A stretch of 64,000 bases of DNA from NCBI GenBank assembly GCA_951406725.2, contig OX597835.1, positions 27,590,001 through 27,654,000 of the forward strand, in the 5' to 3' direction. A model generated the notes under the pieces. That model was given only the letters and a program-made list of their open reading frames with translations. It was not told the DNA's origin and searched no databases. The translations under genes and the position numbers were made by a program. This DNA comes from Octopus vulgaris. Its lineage: Eukaryota. Positions 1,837 to 59,166 of this stretch are shown here, piece after piece (position 1 is the stretch's first letter; every line of letters starts with the position of its first letter).

Positions 1837-3105
1837 TCAGGTCATCCCATAAGTTCTGTCCGATTTTACCTTTTTTAAAATTGAATGAAATTTAATAGTA
1901 TTTTAGAATGTCTAATAGAATTAAAAAATATTTTTATTCATTTGTCTACATTTAAACTAATTAAATATTATTTTACAGAATAATAGAATTAAAATTTCTT
2001 TGATTAAAACCCTTTCTAATATGGAAGTATCCAAAGAGCATTTGAAGCACATAATGCTTTATGAGTACAAAAAAAGGAAACTCTGCAGTCAAAGTGGCTC
2101 GAAACATATACTCAGTTTATGGGAAAGAATGCTTGAATGAAAGAACTTGCAGAAGATGGTTTGCAAAATTCAGAAGTGGAGATTTCAGCCTTGAAGATGA
2201 AGATCGAACAGGACGTCCAGTTGAGTTTGATGATAAACTCCTTGAGGCATTACTTGAAGAAAATCCTGTATTATCAGTTGAAGAATTGGCAATAAAGCTT
2301 AGTTCAAACCATACAATTGTTCATTGTCATCTTCAACAACTTGGAAAGGTTCCTAAACTTGGAAAATGGGTGCCTCGTGAATTATCCAAAAGTAACCGCA
2401 AATCCCGAGTTGACATCTGCTCTTCTCTCCATTCTCATGAACTTATTTCACTCTTTTTGGATAGACTTGTGACTGATGACGAAATGTTAAATGCTGTAAA
2501 CAGTGGCTTGGTAAAAGGGAAAAAGCTCAACCACAACCACGAAGGGAACTTCATGGGAAAAAGGTTCTTCTCTCTATCTGGTGGAATTGCAAAGGAGTAA
2601 TTCATTTTGAATTGTTACCACCTAATGCAACTATCAATGCTCAAGTCTACTTTCAGTAATTAGAGTGTTTGAACCAAGCTTTGAAAAGAAGGACCTGCTT
2701 TAGTGAATCGAAAAGGAGTGATGTTTCATCAAGACAATGCATGACCCCACACTGCAAAGATCATATCACAGAAGATTGAAGAGAGCTTGGTTGGGAAAAA
2801 TTCCTCATCCACCTTATTCTCTTGACATTGCTCCTTCAGACTACCATTTGTTTCATAGTTTATAGAATCATTTGGGGGACATAACCTTCGCAAGCCAGGA
2901 GGAGGTCGAAACTGACATTTCAGAGTTCTTCGCTTTGAAACCAAAAGAGTTTTACATTGATGGGATTAAAAAGCTTGTAAATAGATGGAAGGAAGTCATA
3001 GATAATCAGGGAAAGTACATTGCTGACTAAATTTCAATTAAATATAACATTTCATCACTTGTTTTCTTTATTCAAAATTTGGACAGAACTTATAGGATGA
3101 CCTGA
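1837..3105 (+). mobile_element. full-length decayed mariner (Tc1/mariner) transposon, 1269 bp
   Basis: TIRs tcaggtcatcccataagttctgtcc and ggacagaacttataggatgacctga, with TA on both sides (1835-36, 3106-07). Contains a transposase remnant. Confidence 0.95.
2021..3030 (+). pseudogene. mariner transposase pseudogene
   Basis: MEVSKEHLKHIMLYEYKK, frameshift, then GNSA...WFAKFRSGDFSLEDEDRTGRP...GKWVPREL...LVTDDE...HQDNA*PH...HPPYSLDIAPSDYHLF. Several stops and frameshifts. Confidence 0.93.
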
Positions 3106-7630: not shown

Positions 7631-9799
7631 CCTCAAGCAATAAGCAAATGAGAAAAAAAGAATTACACTCATCAGGAACTGAATAAGCAAAAAAGACAAA
7701 AATAGAATAAAAACAATCCCTAGCATTTAATGAAAGTTTCTCAGTTTGTGATTAAAATATATTTTCTAACCCCAAAATATAATTTCAGTTGTCTATTTCT
7801 AGAATTATATCTGAATGAATAAAGAAATGGGAAAGAGTTATCTAGGCAAGTGTGCGAGTGAATCTGCTTTATAATCACCAATAATATATTTTGTTCGCTG
7901 ATGCAAAAACAAGGTATTTCTGAAACTGTGTCAAAAGACATAGAAAATTTTAATTGCTTTTTTTTTCAAAAGATAGTGTTAAATATGAGGAAGGGAGATA
8001 ATTGTAATGCAACATTAGATGATTAAGGGTGTGTTGCAGACAATATAAAAGTACTAGACAAGGCATGAAGCAAAAGTAATTTTTTTTTTAACATTCTTAT
8101 TTAAATTATCTTGTTTTCTAAAATTGACTAAAATTGACTACAGATTTAGTTTAAATTCTGTAAAAAGAAAAACATTAAAAAAAAAATAAATAAAAAAAGG
8201 AAACCTAAAATTTAATTTTTAGAAAAGAAAACTTTGTTCTAAGAATTGTTTGAACGAAATGAAATATAGTTATCTTTATTGATAAATGTTATGAATTCAT
8301 ATAAAGATAATATCTTAGAATTTGAGAGAGACATAAAGATAGATAAAGAGAGAGGGGAGAAAGGAGGAGGGAGGGAGAGAGAGTGTGTGCATGAATGTGT
8401 AAAATAGAACATATTTCTTATTGAAATAGATTTTAAGTAATCTGAATTATATTTGTATTTTATCAAAATCTATGTACACACACGAATGCACACAATAAAC
8501 ACAAAGATTAACTTGAATGTATATATACATATAGATAAAAAAATTTATAATATCTCTGATTTATTCAAATTTTAAACCTAAACATCGCTGATTTTAATGT
8601 ATGTAATTTAGTATCACAATACATAAAGCAATTTTAGAAAACAAACAAAAAAACAAACAAACAAAAACAGACTATTGTTTCTTTTTTTTATATATATATA
8701 TAAGTAATGGAACATCCGTTAGAATAATGCAATTGTTAAAGATACAAGAATTTAATGATGAAACAATGCAAAAATCTGTCATTAAGGATCCGTAATGCAA
8801 AAAATGAAAATTCTAGCAAGTTCTAATAACGGCTGCTGAATAATACTTCCTCTCTTTAACACACACCTCTACATACACACACATATATATGTACATTTAT
8901 ACATACATACAAACATATATATATACATAATATACATATATACATACATATATATATATATACACATATATATATATGCATACTCACTTTTCTAGCTAAT
9001 TATTTCCTATATTTAAAACCAATTTCATTCATATCTGCAGAATGCCATAGCATATATATCTACCAACTCACTGAGCCCAAACAGAGAAATGCCATGAAGG
9101 CCTGTGTGCATTTAGGACTGGGATGGGTGATAGGTTCTAAAAAGCATGACAGAAGATTAAAGGGAAATAGAAACAAACGAAAGAAGGGACATAGTTGGAG
9201 TATGAGATGTAAATACATCGTGGTTGATATTTTATAAGAAACTGGAGAAGAATTGAAGGTAATTAATTTCAGGATTGCGGGGACTCAGCATCATATCAAA
9301 TGACCAAGTTTCAATTAAAAATATTTAACTATTTGCATTTTTAAGCTTAAAAAAAACGGATTTGGAAAAAATAAAAACAAAAAAACTGTGAGTCTATATT
9401 AATTGAAATCGTACAGTGAAGTTAATGAGTGTAGATAATTTACTAGGCCAGAGAAAAGAAAAAAAATCTGATGTTCTAGAACTGTCTCTTTGTCTGAGAG
9501 AGAGAAACCATTTCCAATAACAACAATGAAAATCTTCCATTCCTTCCTTTCTTTTTCTGACTCTCAGACAAAGGGATAGTCTGAAATATGAGATTATACT
9601 TCTCCCAATAGCAGAAGAATTATTTGTCTTGTGATATGCGTATTGTTACTACTGACTAGTTAATACTATTTAAGACTATGTATTATTTCTATTTTATTTA
9701 TTCTATTATTTTATTTTGCTTATGAATTAAAATTATTCTGAAGCAAGAATTCTTGCCTCAAATAATTATGAATCTTAGGTATCCCTTGACATTCACCCT

Positions 9800-14080: not shown

Positions 14081-14089
14081 CTTCACCAC
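14081..14089 (-). CDS. unc-13: 9-nt microexon of unc-13 (VVK)
   Basis: ctttttccgctttctattctccatgcag|GTGGTGAAG|gtattt. Strong pyrimidine tract with UGC, phase 0-0. It lies right after ...VSDL, where other UNC-13s carry a 2-3 aa optional insert (recalled: AM in Munc13-1, VLK in fly). Confidence 0.8.
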
Positions 14090-14811
14090 CTGCATGGAGA
14101 ATAGAAAGCGGAAAAAGTACTTTGGCAGAGTACACTCAGACAATACAGAACTTAATATGCAAGGTTTTTACATTTGAAAATTAATTACAAGCCCGCCACT
14201 TAATTCATTCAGTTATTATTCATTTATTTATTTATTTATTTAAATTCTTCTTTTTTTTTTTTGGTTATTTTATTTGAAATCCTTTTAAAAGTTGTTCTTA
14301 ATATTCAGAACAGCTGAAGGTGGTGGTGGTGGTGGTGGTGGTGGTGGAGGTGTTGGTGAGTAAGCTTGTGATAAATATCATAATGAGCATAAATGTGAGC
14401 AGAGGCTGCTTTGCCGAAGAAACTTATTTAGAAAAAAAACAAACAAATATTGTTGTTATTATTATTAATAATAATTATTATTATTGTCACTTTTAATATT
14501 ATTATTACCATTATTATTTTTTTTTTTTTGGAAATAGTGCTGGCAAAGAGACAATTTACGGCAAGAAAATAAAAGTAGGTTTGTACTATCATGCAATTGA
14601 AATTTTTCACAGAACTAAAAAGCATTTTTGCAGTTCATTTACCCCTATGCAGAAAATGGTGTTAAATTTCTAAATAGTAAAAACAAAGTGATAATTATCA
14701 TAATGAAAATCTGAAAATTTATTTAAAGTATATAAAATTTAGATTAATTTTTCTTAAAAAAAAGAGATTAAATTTTATCATAGAAGCATTTCTAAATTAT
14801 TTGATATAATT

Positions 14812-14868
<57 letters not shown>

Positions 14869-15757
14869 CTTCCATAGACCAAACTGCAAGATAAGAATTG
14901 CAGCTTATTTTCCATTTTGCAGTTTTAACAATTTAAAAGAGTTGTATTATTTTGGAAAAAGAAACATAAAAAAAAGAAGAAAAAATTGCTAGGAAAGTCC
15001 AAAAGTTGTTCCTGCTTGATAAAAATTAAATAAGAAATTAAAAATGGACTTTGATTAATATATTAAAAATGTTATTCTAATTAGGATAAAAATTCAGTAT
15101 TACAAATAAAGAATGTTTTGGGTTAATTTTGGTTTTAAATCCAGAATTATCTGAACAGATTTCTTCCTATAATTATCAAAATCAAATAAATCCTCAATGT
15201 GGTTATATAACATGTGACGGTGATGAATGCTTAACAAATAAAAGAAGAAAAAAAAACAAACAACAAAATAAAATTAAAAAAACATTCAAACCACGACTAC
15301 AAAACACAGTTTTACGGATAAATGTCGACATAGACACAAGATTTCAAAACTGCTCAATGTAATTTTTCTCAAAAGCATAACCACAAATAATTAGTATTCT
15401 GATAACGAATTTCGAGAAATTTGTTAACGAGATTGCCTAAATGAAAATTTGTGAATTTGTGAATATGAATGAAATTGCGATAAATACAACTTTTAATTTT
15501 TCTTTGATCCAAAAAGAAAAAAAAAAATTAATAAATATAAAATAAAAAAATATACATTTAAAAGCTTGAGCAAATCAAAAAAAAATTATAGAAAAACAAA
15601 CAATACAACTCCATGCTAGGCTAATTAGAAAAGGATAACAGGCTAATTAGACAGTTATCCTAGCAATGAGAAAAAAGGCACTAATTGGGAAAGGCTAGGT
15701 AAAATTCACTTCTTAACAATCACATTCAGTGAGTGAAGCATGGGATCGAATTTGTAC

Positions 15758-15824
15758 CTTAAACGGACAACTGACTGTGTGTCAGCATATGCAGTTGACC
15801 CCAAATGCCATACCATTGTTTTTT
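15758..15824 (-). other. candidate 67-nt exon (frame-shifting/stop-containing, or part of an alternative N-terminus)
   Basis: tttttttgtggcctgtggtctag|AAAAAACAA...GTTTAAG|gtacaa. In phase 0 it reads KKQWYGIWGQLHMLTHSQLSV*. Another frame is open (KTMVWHLGSTAYADTQSVVRL). Confidence 0.35.
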
Positions 15825-15967
15825 CTAGACCACAGGCCACAAAAAAAAGGTAAATCAAATCAATTGCATGATGAATAGAATTGTTTTTCTTTTTTTCTTT
15901 TATTTGTTATTATTATTTTTTTTTTTTGAAATTGTTAATTATAAAGAAATAGCTCTTGCATACTTAC

Positions 15968-15997
15968 AGAGCAGATGGACTGTTTAGGCGGCTTGAT
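15968..15997 (-). CDS. unc-13: candidate 30-nt cassette microexon of unc-13 (IKPPKQSICS)
   Basis: ttttttatgcatgctgcattag|ATCAAGCCGCCTAAACAGTCCATCTGCTCT|gtaagt. Consensus donor, three UGC just before the AG, phase 0-0. Confidence 0.7.
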
Positions 15998-16124
15998 CTA
16001 ATGCAGCATGCATAAAAAATTAGATAACTGATCTTGTGTGACAGTTTAAGGTACAGAATGAAAAGGAACAAATCAGTCAAGGGATATAAGCAATTAGCAA
16101 TGTACCTGACATGTACACACATCT

Positions 16125-16161
<37 letters not shown>

Positions 16162-16404
16162 CATATATACATACATATATACATACATATATATATACAT
16201 ACATATATATATACATATATATATATAGTGATGTAAGGTAAACTTATAGGGGTGTGCTTTAGCAAATACATTGTTTTAGCGTTGTTGTGGAAAGTAGGAG
16301 CAACGGTTAACCACAGCAAGGCTAAATATATGTGCTTGTTGAAAACGTATATACATAAGTTTACTCTACATCTTTATTTATTCTAATGCTGTGTAGTGCT
16401 TCTA

Positions 16405-16449
<45 letters not shown>

Positions 16450-16772
16450 ATAGATAAATAGATATATGCATGTGTGTATATTTACAAAACACTTGTAGTA
16501 AAAAAAAAAAAAATTCAAAATAGTTTTAGAAGAAATTTAAATGATTATGTTTTTGCATTCAACGCAAAACATAGATAAATAAATAAATAAATATTTTCAA
16601 CAATTTGATGTATACCATCCATATTGAAAGAAAGAAAATGAAAATAACCAAAGATATAAAATGAAATTATGACTTTAAAAATATTTCAGATAAATTTCTT
16701 GGTATTTGTATGCTTTGTATATATATTTGTGTTTTGGAAACTATTGGTTCTAATGGTTCTTAACAAATTTAA

Positions 16773-16974
16773 CCCCTTAGAATTTAAACTGGCCATATCA
16801 GACCCAAATATTATACTTGTGTGCTTAAACCAGCCAGATCTAGCTTCTCACACTTACGTTACAATGTCATTCTAAAAATAAACAATCACAGCATTGAAAT
16901 CTTGAAGCCTGATTAATTTAAAACAATGAATAAATCAGCATTACATTTGACAGAATAATCTGAATGCTAAAGGG
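16773..16974. mobile_element. TTAA-flanked (piggyBac-type) MITE
   Basis: TTAA|ccccttagaattt...aatgctaaaggg|TTAA. Related fragments at about 57910-58265. Confidence 0.65.
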
Positions 16975-17512
16975 TTAATATTTGTCACTGAAGACGATCA
17001 CTATTTTTCTTTAAAATGTTGAGATTTAATAAACTATTTTGATTTTTAGTACAAAATATTTTCCATTCATTCCTACTGTGCAAATTTGGTAGAAGAAATA
17101 CTACATAGTGATATAGTGGTGCTGTTTTGTTTTCTTTTTTTTTCTTTTTTGTTTTTCTATATTTTTTTTTTTAGAAACCTTTTCCTAACTTAGGAAAAAA
17201 ATTGTTTTCGTCATGAGCTTGTATATAAGTTCCTACTCTTATGAGTTATTATATACACACCTAATAATAGATCACAATTATGTATAGAATCCTTAAAAAG
17301 CATTAATGCCAAGCTATTTACTTGAATCTCTTATCTCAATATAAATTATCAATCAACATGAAAAAATGAAAGCACTTTATAATAGAATAAGATTTTTTAA
17401 ATCCAAAACTTTCTTAATTATCACAATGCACTTATAATAGCCAATAAAAATACTAAAGCTATAAACAGTTCTAAAAACAAAGTACATGTACCATCCATCA
17501 TTCTAATAATAC

Positions 17513-17569
17513 CATTGAGATGATAGTGTCAAGTCGGCTCGTAATGTCAGTGGAATAAATCGAAGAAAC
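17513..17569 (-). CDS. unc-13: candidate alternative cassette exon of unc-13 (57 nt, VSSIYSTDITSRLDTIISM)
   Basis: tatatag|GTT...ATG|gtatta. Phase 0-0 with no stop, and richer in GC/CpG than the unique AT-rich flanks. No homology support. Confidence 0.5.
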
Positions 17570-17678
17570 CTATATACAAGCTCTTCATAACAACAACAAA
17601 CTCAGAAAATATAAAAATAATAGATAACAGTGTAATGTTTTTAATAAAATATATACACATATAAGTTTAAGGTATTTT

Positions 17679-33020: not shown

Positions 33021-34618
33021 TTATTTTCTTGTTTTAAATCTCTGAGTAAGAGATTTTCTTTCTTTTTTTTATATCATGGAACCAAAAATAATCTTTAGTA
33101 AGTTGATATTGAAAATGATTAATCCCTTCCCTTTCCTTAATGACCCAGCTGAGACCAAATTCTAAAAACTGACCACAAATATTAATAGAATTATCAAAAT
33201 AAATTGCAGTTTTTTTTCAGGGTTTGTCAGGTGAAAATTAACTTAAAAGGAAGTTATAATAATTCATAATTAATAGAGACTAATTTTTTTAAAATATTAA
33301 TGAGCAGATTTGTAAGGTATCTAAACAAAGGAATTCGCTTTTCCCCAATAATCTAATACATTATTGTTGTTCTTTTTTAGACTAATCCTCATTGAATGAA
33401 TGCACTTATTATTGAAGGCATTCCAGTAATGACCACCCCATTTGCTTAGCAGTGTCTAGGATGACTTTATCTAACATAGCTATCTTATTTTTTTACAACA
33501 TGATAGTATGTAAAGTAATAGAGATGTAGTTGCTATGCTGGTGTTGTTGTGTAGCCTCAGGTGAGTCCTGACTCAAAACATATCTGTGGAGGCATGAAGC
33601 TTAGTGGTTATGGTACTGGACTCATGATTGTAAGATTGTGGTTTCAATTCCTGCACCAGGCGTTGCATTGCATTCTTGAGCAAAACACTTCTTTTCACAT
33701 TGTTCCAGTGTACTCAGCTGGCAAAAATGAGTAATCCTGCAAGGGACTGGCATCCTATCCAGGTGCAGAATATATACACTATGAAATCAGCCCTTATGAG
33801 TTGATATGACTTGAGAAGATAACTAACTTTTGCAATACATATCTATGACCAAAAGCGTTCCACCTTTGCCCATCATGTATTTTTTTTTCAAGCATAGTGT
33901 ATCTACAACTACATTGTCTAATGTATCTTACATTTTTAAGAAGTTAAGGTGTAATTAAAGAGAAGTTTGGCTGCTATTTCTATCAAGTCAAACAACCATA
34001 TAAAGGCTCCCTCATAAGATTAAATAAAATTATACATGTAATTTATGCATAAATGTATGTATGTGTAGGGTGGTACATGACAAAATGTAAGTTTAACACT
34101 ATAGCTTTCAGCAGCAAATATGTAACTGCAAATAGAATGGATTGAATCCTTTAACTAATTAATAATAATTAATGCAATCAATGTAATTTCTGACAAAACA
34201 TTATGAATATATGTTTTAGGTTCCTTTCTTTAATAGGTTTGTTTCAAAGGCAGGGAAAAATGATAGTAACATTTCCATTTTCTTTTTCTTCTTTTTATTT
34301 TTAAATTCAAACTGAGAAGGTTGGCAAGGTTTCAAATTTTATGCATATTTGAATGAGTCTTTAATATCAATGCATGCAAAATAAAGGCTACATACTACAT
34401 ACTAGAAAAAAGAAACAAACAATAAAAAATGGAAAAAAAATAAAAAGAATTATACACCAAAATGAAATAAGCAATTCAAAAATGAAATAATATTCACAAA
34501 ATAGAAAATGGAAAATACATTTGACAAAAACAAAAATAACAAAGGAAAAATCAAAATAATAATGATAAAAACATATAAAACAAAAACAAGGCAGAAAATA
34601 AGAGATGAATGTACTTAC

Positions 34619-34709
34619 TAGATCACTAACAAAAGGGATAGATTTTCGCCTTGGCTTAATTTCCGGCATACTATCTATACTTGTATAAAATGTATTATGC
34701 TCAGGGGGT
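34619..34709 (-). CDS. unc-13: unc-13 internal exon (91 nt), conserved pre-C1 block
   Basis: Acceptor cttatatcccattacag and donor CTA|gtaagt. Reads (G)PPEHNTFYTSIDSMPEIKPRRKSIPFVSDL, matching the Munc13/UNC-13 motif IDSMPDIR(P/K)R(R/K).IPLVS(D/E)L. Phase 2 to phase 0. Confidence 0.95.
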
Positions 34710-58973: not shown

Positions 58974-59166
58974 GTCTCCTAGCTGACTGCACACTTTTTG
59001 GATTGCATCGATCCAACGATTACGAGCTGGTGAAGGCAGTTCTGTGCGTTTTTCTGTTTCTTTCTCTTCATAAGGTAAATCAGTTGGAGGAGGAGCAGCA
59101 GCATCACTGTAGTCTTGTGTACTCTGTCGGCTGACATCTGCTGAAGAAATTCGGCTATTCACAGGA
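58974..59166 (-). CDS. unc-13: unc-13/Munc13 internal exon (193 nt) containing a calmodulin-binding-like helix
   Basis: Acceptor tcttacttttgcag and donor GAC|gtaagt. Reads xPVNSRISSADVSRQSTQDYSDAAAPPPTDLPYEEKETEKRTELPSPARNRWIDAIQKVCSQLGD. SPARNRWIDAIQKVCSQL aligns with the Munc13-1 CaM site SRAKANWLRAFNKVRMQL. Ends in phase 0, matching the next exon. Confidence 0.88.

Follow-up and report, generated by a model that had tools for sequence, protein, structure and literature searches.

The analysed window is a stretch of 64,000 nucleotides (nt) of the Octopus vulgaris genome (G000:C22:27590001-27654000, contig OX597835.1). It carries part of unc-13, which encodes the vesicle-priming protein Unc13. 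The gene and all the array units described here are on the minus strand, and window numbering is used throughout. Octopus Unc13 proteins give 100% matches for the exons at 59166-58974, 56716-56651 and 34709-34619. After position 34619 begins an intron of 64,151 nt, which extends past the left end of the window. This intron holds at least four short in-frame segments, present in different combinations in octopus Unc13 isoforms. The exons that frame the array are the following.

58974..59166, minus strand: unc-13 exon that encodes, close to the 3' end, a probable calmodulin-binding helix (octopus Unc13 P0011/P0017 match it at 100%)
34619..34709, minus strand: constitutive exon upstream of the array, ending in VSDL, with donor GTAAGT and phase 0 (matches octopus Unc13 proteins)
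G000:C22:27560390-27560467, minus strand: next constitutive exon, outside the window (it starts at window coordinate -29533, 29.5 kb beyond the left end)

The C1 exon comes after the next constitutive exon, at window coordinate -31191. The calmodulin (CaM) site is probable and follows the hydrophobic pattern given in PMC9282427. A PDB search with this exon gave no matches. The array junction is located 65 residues past the tryptophan of the probable CaM site (P0017) and about 21 residues before the conserved stretch leading into the C1 exon. It falls between the CaM site and C1, after VS[DE]L, which is the same place as the VLK-type microexon of other animals. An initial annotation of this DNA had already named unc-13 and placed the units in the CaM-C1 linker at a known microexon junction, and the literature bears this out (PMC12287369, PMC8797185).

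The units of the array, in gene order A, B, C, D and E, are listed below. The isoform inserts are colinear with this order.

17513..17569, minus strand: unit A, 57 nt and 19 residues, candidate cassette exon with AG/GT bounds and an open frame
15968..15997, minus strand: exon B, 30 nt and 10 residues (IKPPKQSICS), cassette exon with donor GTAAGT; 10/10 residues in O. sinensis XP_036368120.1 and XP_036368121.1 (P0010, P0009)
14643..14669, minus strand: exon C, 27 nt and 9 residues, cassette microexon; 9/9 residues in O. bimaculoides UVH70864.1 (P0017)
14081..14089, minus strand: exon D, 9 nt, VVK; in O. sinensis isoform X1 (P0010)
G000:C22:27571758-27571766 (L003:1758-1766; start at window coordinate -18234), minus strand: exon E, 9 nt, VMK; in 4/4 octopus inclusion isoforms

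The initial annotation had described three of these units (17569-17513, 15997-15968 and 14089-14081) as AG/GT-bounded, stop-free and phase 0-0, and we find them so. It had read them as one switch that may have expanded to an array. The 30-nt and 9-nt units indeed occur in O. sinensis isoforms, and the 57-nt unit has no transcript support. The list was also incomplete. Exon C lies inside the same span and was absent from it, and exon E belongs to the array about 18 kb outside the window.

The AG/GT pattern alone is not above chance. The intron contains 1,953 AG..GT units of 3-60 nt that keep the frame and have no stop, with 69 of them within 14081-17569 (overlapping units are counted separately). 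Units B and D rise above this background because they are present in public octopus protein isoforms. Exon C is the best match in the intron for the 9-residue insert of O. bimaculoides, with a score of 51 and the next at 26. Units of the form AG|V-x-K|GT occur only twice in the whole intron, at D and E.

For scoring the splice sites, we used a matrix for which 23 constitutive junctions of the same gene were the training set. Among the 1,953 units, C ranks 2, D ranks 9, E ranks 43, B ranks 176 and A ranks 576. The AG-exclusion zones measure 28 nt for B, 39 for C, 28 for D and 37 for E; for A the zone is 9 nt. Within 20 nt of the acceptor, UGC is found three times before B and once before D, and not before A, C or E. 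Three or more TGC in this interval, as before B, precede only 3 of the 3,261 AGs in the intron. A CUAAU lies at -26 before the acceptor of B. Other high-scoring candidates, for example 6 nt at 34401 and 12 nt at 7678, are in no protein. Exon D has an internal GT past its first codon (14089-14087), which makes a 3-nt (V) form possible. This form ranks 7 of 1,953 and is in no protein.

The cephalopod set consists of 14 proteins with both flanking anchors, gathered by a search with the CaM-site exon and by cluster listing. Ten of them have no insert and four have one. O. sinensis shows B+VVK+VMK (B+D+E) in X1, B+VMK in X2 and VMK in X3, and also forms with nothing. In O. bimaculoides, UVH70864.1 carries C and VMK (C+E). 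Both included and skipped forms exist (O. sinensis X1-X5 and the O. bimaculoides protein records), and the five linker forms add 0, 3, 12, 13 or 16 residues. What is directly observed here is the set of four segments, with their splice sites and isoform matches.

These forms do not show a free combination of units, for which eight or more variants had been proposed. E is in all four inclusion forms. This suggests nested use, on small numbers: isoform use looks nested, with E first and the others added on E. B and C each have a cysteine near the end and never occur together among the four inclusion forms. Mutual exclusion of B and C, or lipidation of the cysteine, are ideas that this raises.

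A further feature of the O. sinensis isoforms X1-X5 (P0008-P0010, P0014, P0016) is an internal first coding exon at 35534-35478 on the minus strand. It sits 770 nt upstream of the 34709 exon and yields a short Unc13 without the CaM site. It resembles the truncated Aplysia form of PMC9282427, a paper that treats the alternative promoters of Aplysia unc13. As five O. sinensis models begin at this exon, the inserts can also occur without the CaM tether.

To place the array among other animals, we surveyed 304 proteins with both anchors, from 365 fetched, with at most 15 members listed for each cluster. The rows are isoform models, many per species. Among the matches listed, 93 proteins are of arthropod type, with VLK in 33 and nothing in 60. 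Another 191 are from other spiralians or unnamed, 111 without an insert and 80 with one. Haliotis combines a 15-residue unit, VLK and an 8-residue unit. Mizuhopecten has VIK and a 4-residue unit, alone or together, and Lingula uses VMQ once or twice. Single inserts appear in Mytilus (13 residues), Mercenaria (9) and Dreissena (5). The Patella and oyster rows have no insert among the matches listed.

Like the octopus, these spiralian Unc13 models carry extra inserts at the same junction. They differ from octopus A, B and C in sequence, and they are known from protein models. The best of 18 comparisons of A, B and C with other mollusc inserts was equalled in 25 of 2000 shuffles, which is not significant after correction. 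Since abalone, scallop, mussel, clam and brachiopod have inserts here, the expansion, which the initial annotation had suggested for this lineage, is not octopus-only; it looks recurrent in spiralians. In addition, two-residue inserts (VM, VP) are found at the next junction, which immediately precedes the C1 exon, in Littorina (P0084, P0085) and Penaeus (P0126, P0147 and others). This next junction is a second variable site in the linker. In the hagfish Myxine, P0364 has a two-residue insert (AM) at the array junction, in one of six rows; it may be another paralogue.

VMK or VLK is present at the array junction in Pomacea, Candidula, Mactra, Haliotis, Gigantopelta and arthropods. This distribution across molluscs and arthropods leads us to infer that E is an inherited exon, and it is probably the orthologue of the worm and fly VLK microexon. 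The VVK exon that the initial annotation had listed, D, is probably a copy rather than the ancestral exon. That D arose as a duplicate of E is a reasonable reading of their likeness, somewhat better than even. Across exon and donor, D and E are identical at 21 of 24 nt (E-value 0.03). Their donors share a 12-mer, a motif chosen after the fact, that has no other copy in 214 kb on both strands. TCTGAGT lies upstream of D and E at -51/-56, with 7 copies in the intron.

The known switch at this junction is a 9-nt exon. In C. elegans it is neuron-type-specific, and worms forced always to include it or always to skip it have impaired olfaction or GABAergic transmission (PMC12287369). The octopus array shares with the worm and fly VLK microexon the gene, the CaM-C1 junction, the 9-nt V-x-K exon (D and E) and the existence of included and skipped forms. 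However, worm and fly have a single exon, whereas octopus has two V-x-K exons, cassettes of 27 and 30 nt and the candidate A, spread over 36 kb of the 64-kb intron. Only D (VVK) and E (VMK) are of the V-x-K type; A, B and C are of other types.

Previous work also lists unc-13 as one of four same-position eMIC microexon targets in fly and mouse (PMC8797185). Octopus B-E resemble the eMIC/Srrm234 (SRRM3/4) microexons. They are short and frame-preserving and have long AG-exclusion zones. UGC stands near the acceptors of B and D and not near those of C and E. C, D and E are within the 27-nt length limit of eMIC microexons; B (30 nt) and A (57 nt) exceed it. The described eMIC targets are single exons, whereas the octopus has an array. 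A possible regulator may be encoded elsewhere in the genome. An arginine/serine-rich exon at G000:C25:37317492-37317626 (L017) matches SRRM_C (PF15230) over the cut-off, at positions 13-55 of 67 and in one exon only. It is a probable Srrm234 eMIC-region exon.

Recurrent neural exon hotspots have been described in other genes, for example syd/SPAG9/MAPK8IP3 and spg/DOCK3/4 (bioRxiv 10.64898/2026.09.05.749416). As in those hotspots, short exons appear to have been gained independently in one ancestral gene in several lineages, and in octopus unc-13 the gains stack at one junction. That study includes O. bimaculoides, and its available text does not mention unc-13. Our literature search turned up no account of more than one exon at this junction, in line with the initial annotation; subscription papers, splicing catalogues and bioRxiv supplements were outside the search.

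Considering these results, we propose that the intron contains at least four in-frame segments (B, C, D and E) used in different isoform combinations, and that they form a likely neuron-regulated cassette array that would tune vesicle priming. We give this reading a probability of about 70%. D would be a duplicate of E, the VLK-type switch that was inherited, and B and C would be lineage additions. Inclusion would be neural, and for B and D it would probably act through UGC and the eMIC domain. Helix H1 in the CaM-C1 linker packs on the MUN domain (PMC11991699), and the CaM-binding region binds and inhibits MUN until calmodulin releases it (PMC10849727). Inserts of 3-16 residues would alter the reach or register of the tether from the CaM region to H1/MUN. 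An altered tether would grade priming or shift release strength, an effect that in C. elegans the 3-residue insert has.

Several results weigh against this proposal. The isoform evidence consists of protein records that have no tissue labels, and the XP_ entries are predicted models. More precisely, B and D are known from predicted RefSeq models of one species (two proteins and one), and C from one GenBank protein of another. The two proteins labelled O. vulgaris have no insert, and neither do five from Sepia and one from Argonauta. The O. vulgaris pair may be annotation of the same genome, and we did not treat it as independent. Regarding the regulators, exact worm EXC-7 or MBL-1 motifs are absent within 250 nt downstream of all five units, although degenerate sites are possible. 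The count of YGCY near the units (1-4 vs 1.8 expected) is near background. The lack of these worm motifs, together with the lack of proximal UGC at C and E, makes a single regulator for all the exons doubtful. The identity between D and E is modest (23/39, vs 22/39 for the next of 601 units), and their likeness is partly forced by the V-x-K codons and the donor consensus. Finally, about 8 residues separate the inserts from the downstream start of the solved Munc13-1 C1C2BMUN constructs. The insertion point falls just before all the solved Munc13-1 constructs, and the structural step has no structural support. AlphaFold is reported to be unreliable for the contacts in question (PMC10849727).

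The first alternative concerns the extent of the array. Unit A might be a real exon too, the fifth of the array, with an RNA helix that hides its acceptor and so gates its use. This is a possibility that we consider doubtful. The predicted helix has 20 base pairs, including 2 G-U pairs, and the following arms.

17564..17583, minus strand: 5' arm, covering the acceptor AG of unit A
17215..17234, minus strand: 3' arm (predicted), 280 nt downstream of the donor of unit A

Both arms occur once each in the 2.8-Gb genome. The predicted energy is -27.4 kcal/mol, which none of 60 Markov simulations reached, and the helix is not in the antisense list. It appears in the minimum-energy and centroid folds, with a z of -2.9 in sense and -1.6 in antisense (boundaries chosen after the fact). 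Nevertheless, it ranks only 22nd of the 30 intron helices of at least 17 bp, and the acceptors of neural microexons tend to be unpaired (PMC12871342). The GC content of unit A shows a step like that of an exon (rank 12 of 360), and TCTGAGT also lies upstream of it, as for D and E. On the other hand, its splice sites are weak. It is in 0 of the 14 cephalopod proteins and has no significant likeness to any other mollusc insert.

Contigs from 4 of 24 listed sequencing runs, none recorded as RNA, cover parts of 17180-17670. They show no joints or loose ends at unit A, and the four that cover its donor all pass through unspliced. Contigs drop rare forms, so this result is no proof of absence. In organism E (contig 17180-17620), unit A differs at 2 of 57 nt, one silent and one T>I, with AG and GT unchanged. 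The flank has 20 listed changes in the other 384 nt and 2 more unlisted. In organism B (contig 17403-17570, depth 2.6), unit A has four changes, with T>I, R>K and M>T among them, and the donor is unchanged. Its flank has 3 listed changes in 110 nt of intron and 5 further differences unlisted. The frame is open in both organisms, which favours an exon. However, there is no synonymous bias. The substitutions mostly change amino acids, and the rate in organism B is no lower than in the flanking intron (4/57 vs 3 listed/110). The contig of organism B ends at 17570, one base from the start of unit A, a weak hint from one contig of low depth. As for the helix, one of the 40 arm bases is changed in organism E (17232), from U-G to U-A, which keeps the pairing; the outer extension is broken in this organism by changes at 17591, 17592 and 17210. 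All these data suggest that routine use of unit A as an exon is improbable, and that its being a used exon at all is unlikely, though far from negligible.

Other origins of unit A find less favour. A transposon or miniature inverted-repeat transposable element (MITE) relic is not supported, with the flanks and helix arms single-copy; an old lone inversion is possible. An alternative first exon ending in ATG is set aside, since this codon is changed in organism B. A VMK-coding 9-mer upstream of unit A (17591-17583, minus strand) has no AG/GT bounds and is changed in organism E; it is one of three such 9-mers in the intron.

The second alternative accepts the exons and limits their function. Only E (VMK) would be a selected functional switch, and B, C and D would be young, low-inclusion exons tolerated in a flexible linker as long as the frame is kept. 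The constant presence of E in the inclusion isoforms and its counterparts across protostomes agree with this, as does the origin of B, C and D each from the records of one species. Moreover, the other mollusc inserts are unrelated to B, C and D, and a 64-kb AT-rich intron offers many chance units. On the other hand, all nine residues of C are identical between O. bimaculoides and the analysed genome, and B is preceded by a rare UGC cluster. Recurrence at one junction in several lineages also fits recurrent functional gain of neural exons (bioRxiv 10.64898/2026.09.05.749416). We consider this alternative improbable, though worth retaining.

A bolder version of the array is less probable still. 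It would be a five-exon Unc13 linker code in octopus neurons, with a duplicated V-x-K switch and three new cassettes. Unit A would be locked by its helix and released in some cells, possibly by adenosine-to-inosine (A-to-I) editing, giving cell-type-specific grades of priming. The junction would then be a spiralian-wide hotspot of exon accretion, not shared by arthropods. A-to-I editing is heavy in coleoids.

Finally, that the inserts are annotation artefacts, from mis-mapped or genome-guided predictions, is very unlikely: the XP_ records are predicted models and 9-nt exons are hard to map, but the inserts come from two species and two sources, map uniquely and in order to canonical AG/GT units, and an ab initio predictor would have little reason to pick 9-30-nt exons 19-53 kb into an intron.

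The intron also contains repeated sequence. The initial annotation had called the sequence around the units in the span from 14081 to 17569 unique and mostly poor in transposable elements. This holds for unit A and its 3' flank, which are single-copy. The repeat scan of the span is dominated by (TA)n microsatellites, and a high-copy interspersed repeat of about 210 nt occupies 16765-16985, between units A and B. The genome has 2,744 first-look candidates for it, of which 40 were scored, with at least 42 matches. It has short terminal inverted ends flanked by TTAA-like sequence, and we take it to be MITE-like. Long inverted repeats are common in the intron (26434-26293, 10178-9897, 6627-5686 and beyond the left end), with uninterrupted helices of up to 73 bp, mostly strand-symmetric. 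They are probably the ends of mobile elements and could form double-stranded RNA. An open stretch of 181 residues at 2055-2597 (plus strand) resembles a degenerate mariner-type transposase.

We regard the array as a real variant of the known neural microexon switch, with at least four cassette exons at the known site and one unproven candidate (A). B-E are already in public protein records, unremarked, and may also stand in splicing catalogues. Together with the same trend in the abalone and scallop models, this makes the array matter less as an octopus-specific innovation. Its interest lies elsewhere. Few microexons have a shown synaptic function, and the single one of unc-13 is among them. 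The exact junctions are now given, and they are testable in worm rescue assays and in the neural RNA data that already exist for cephalopods. The likely duplicated V-x-K exon of octopus and the twice-used VMQ of Lingula suggest that a binary switch repeatedly grew into a multi-step one in spiralians. The array also bears on whether cephalopod synaptic diversity arises by splicing of single genes rather than by gene gain, a question raised in PMC9282427.

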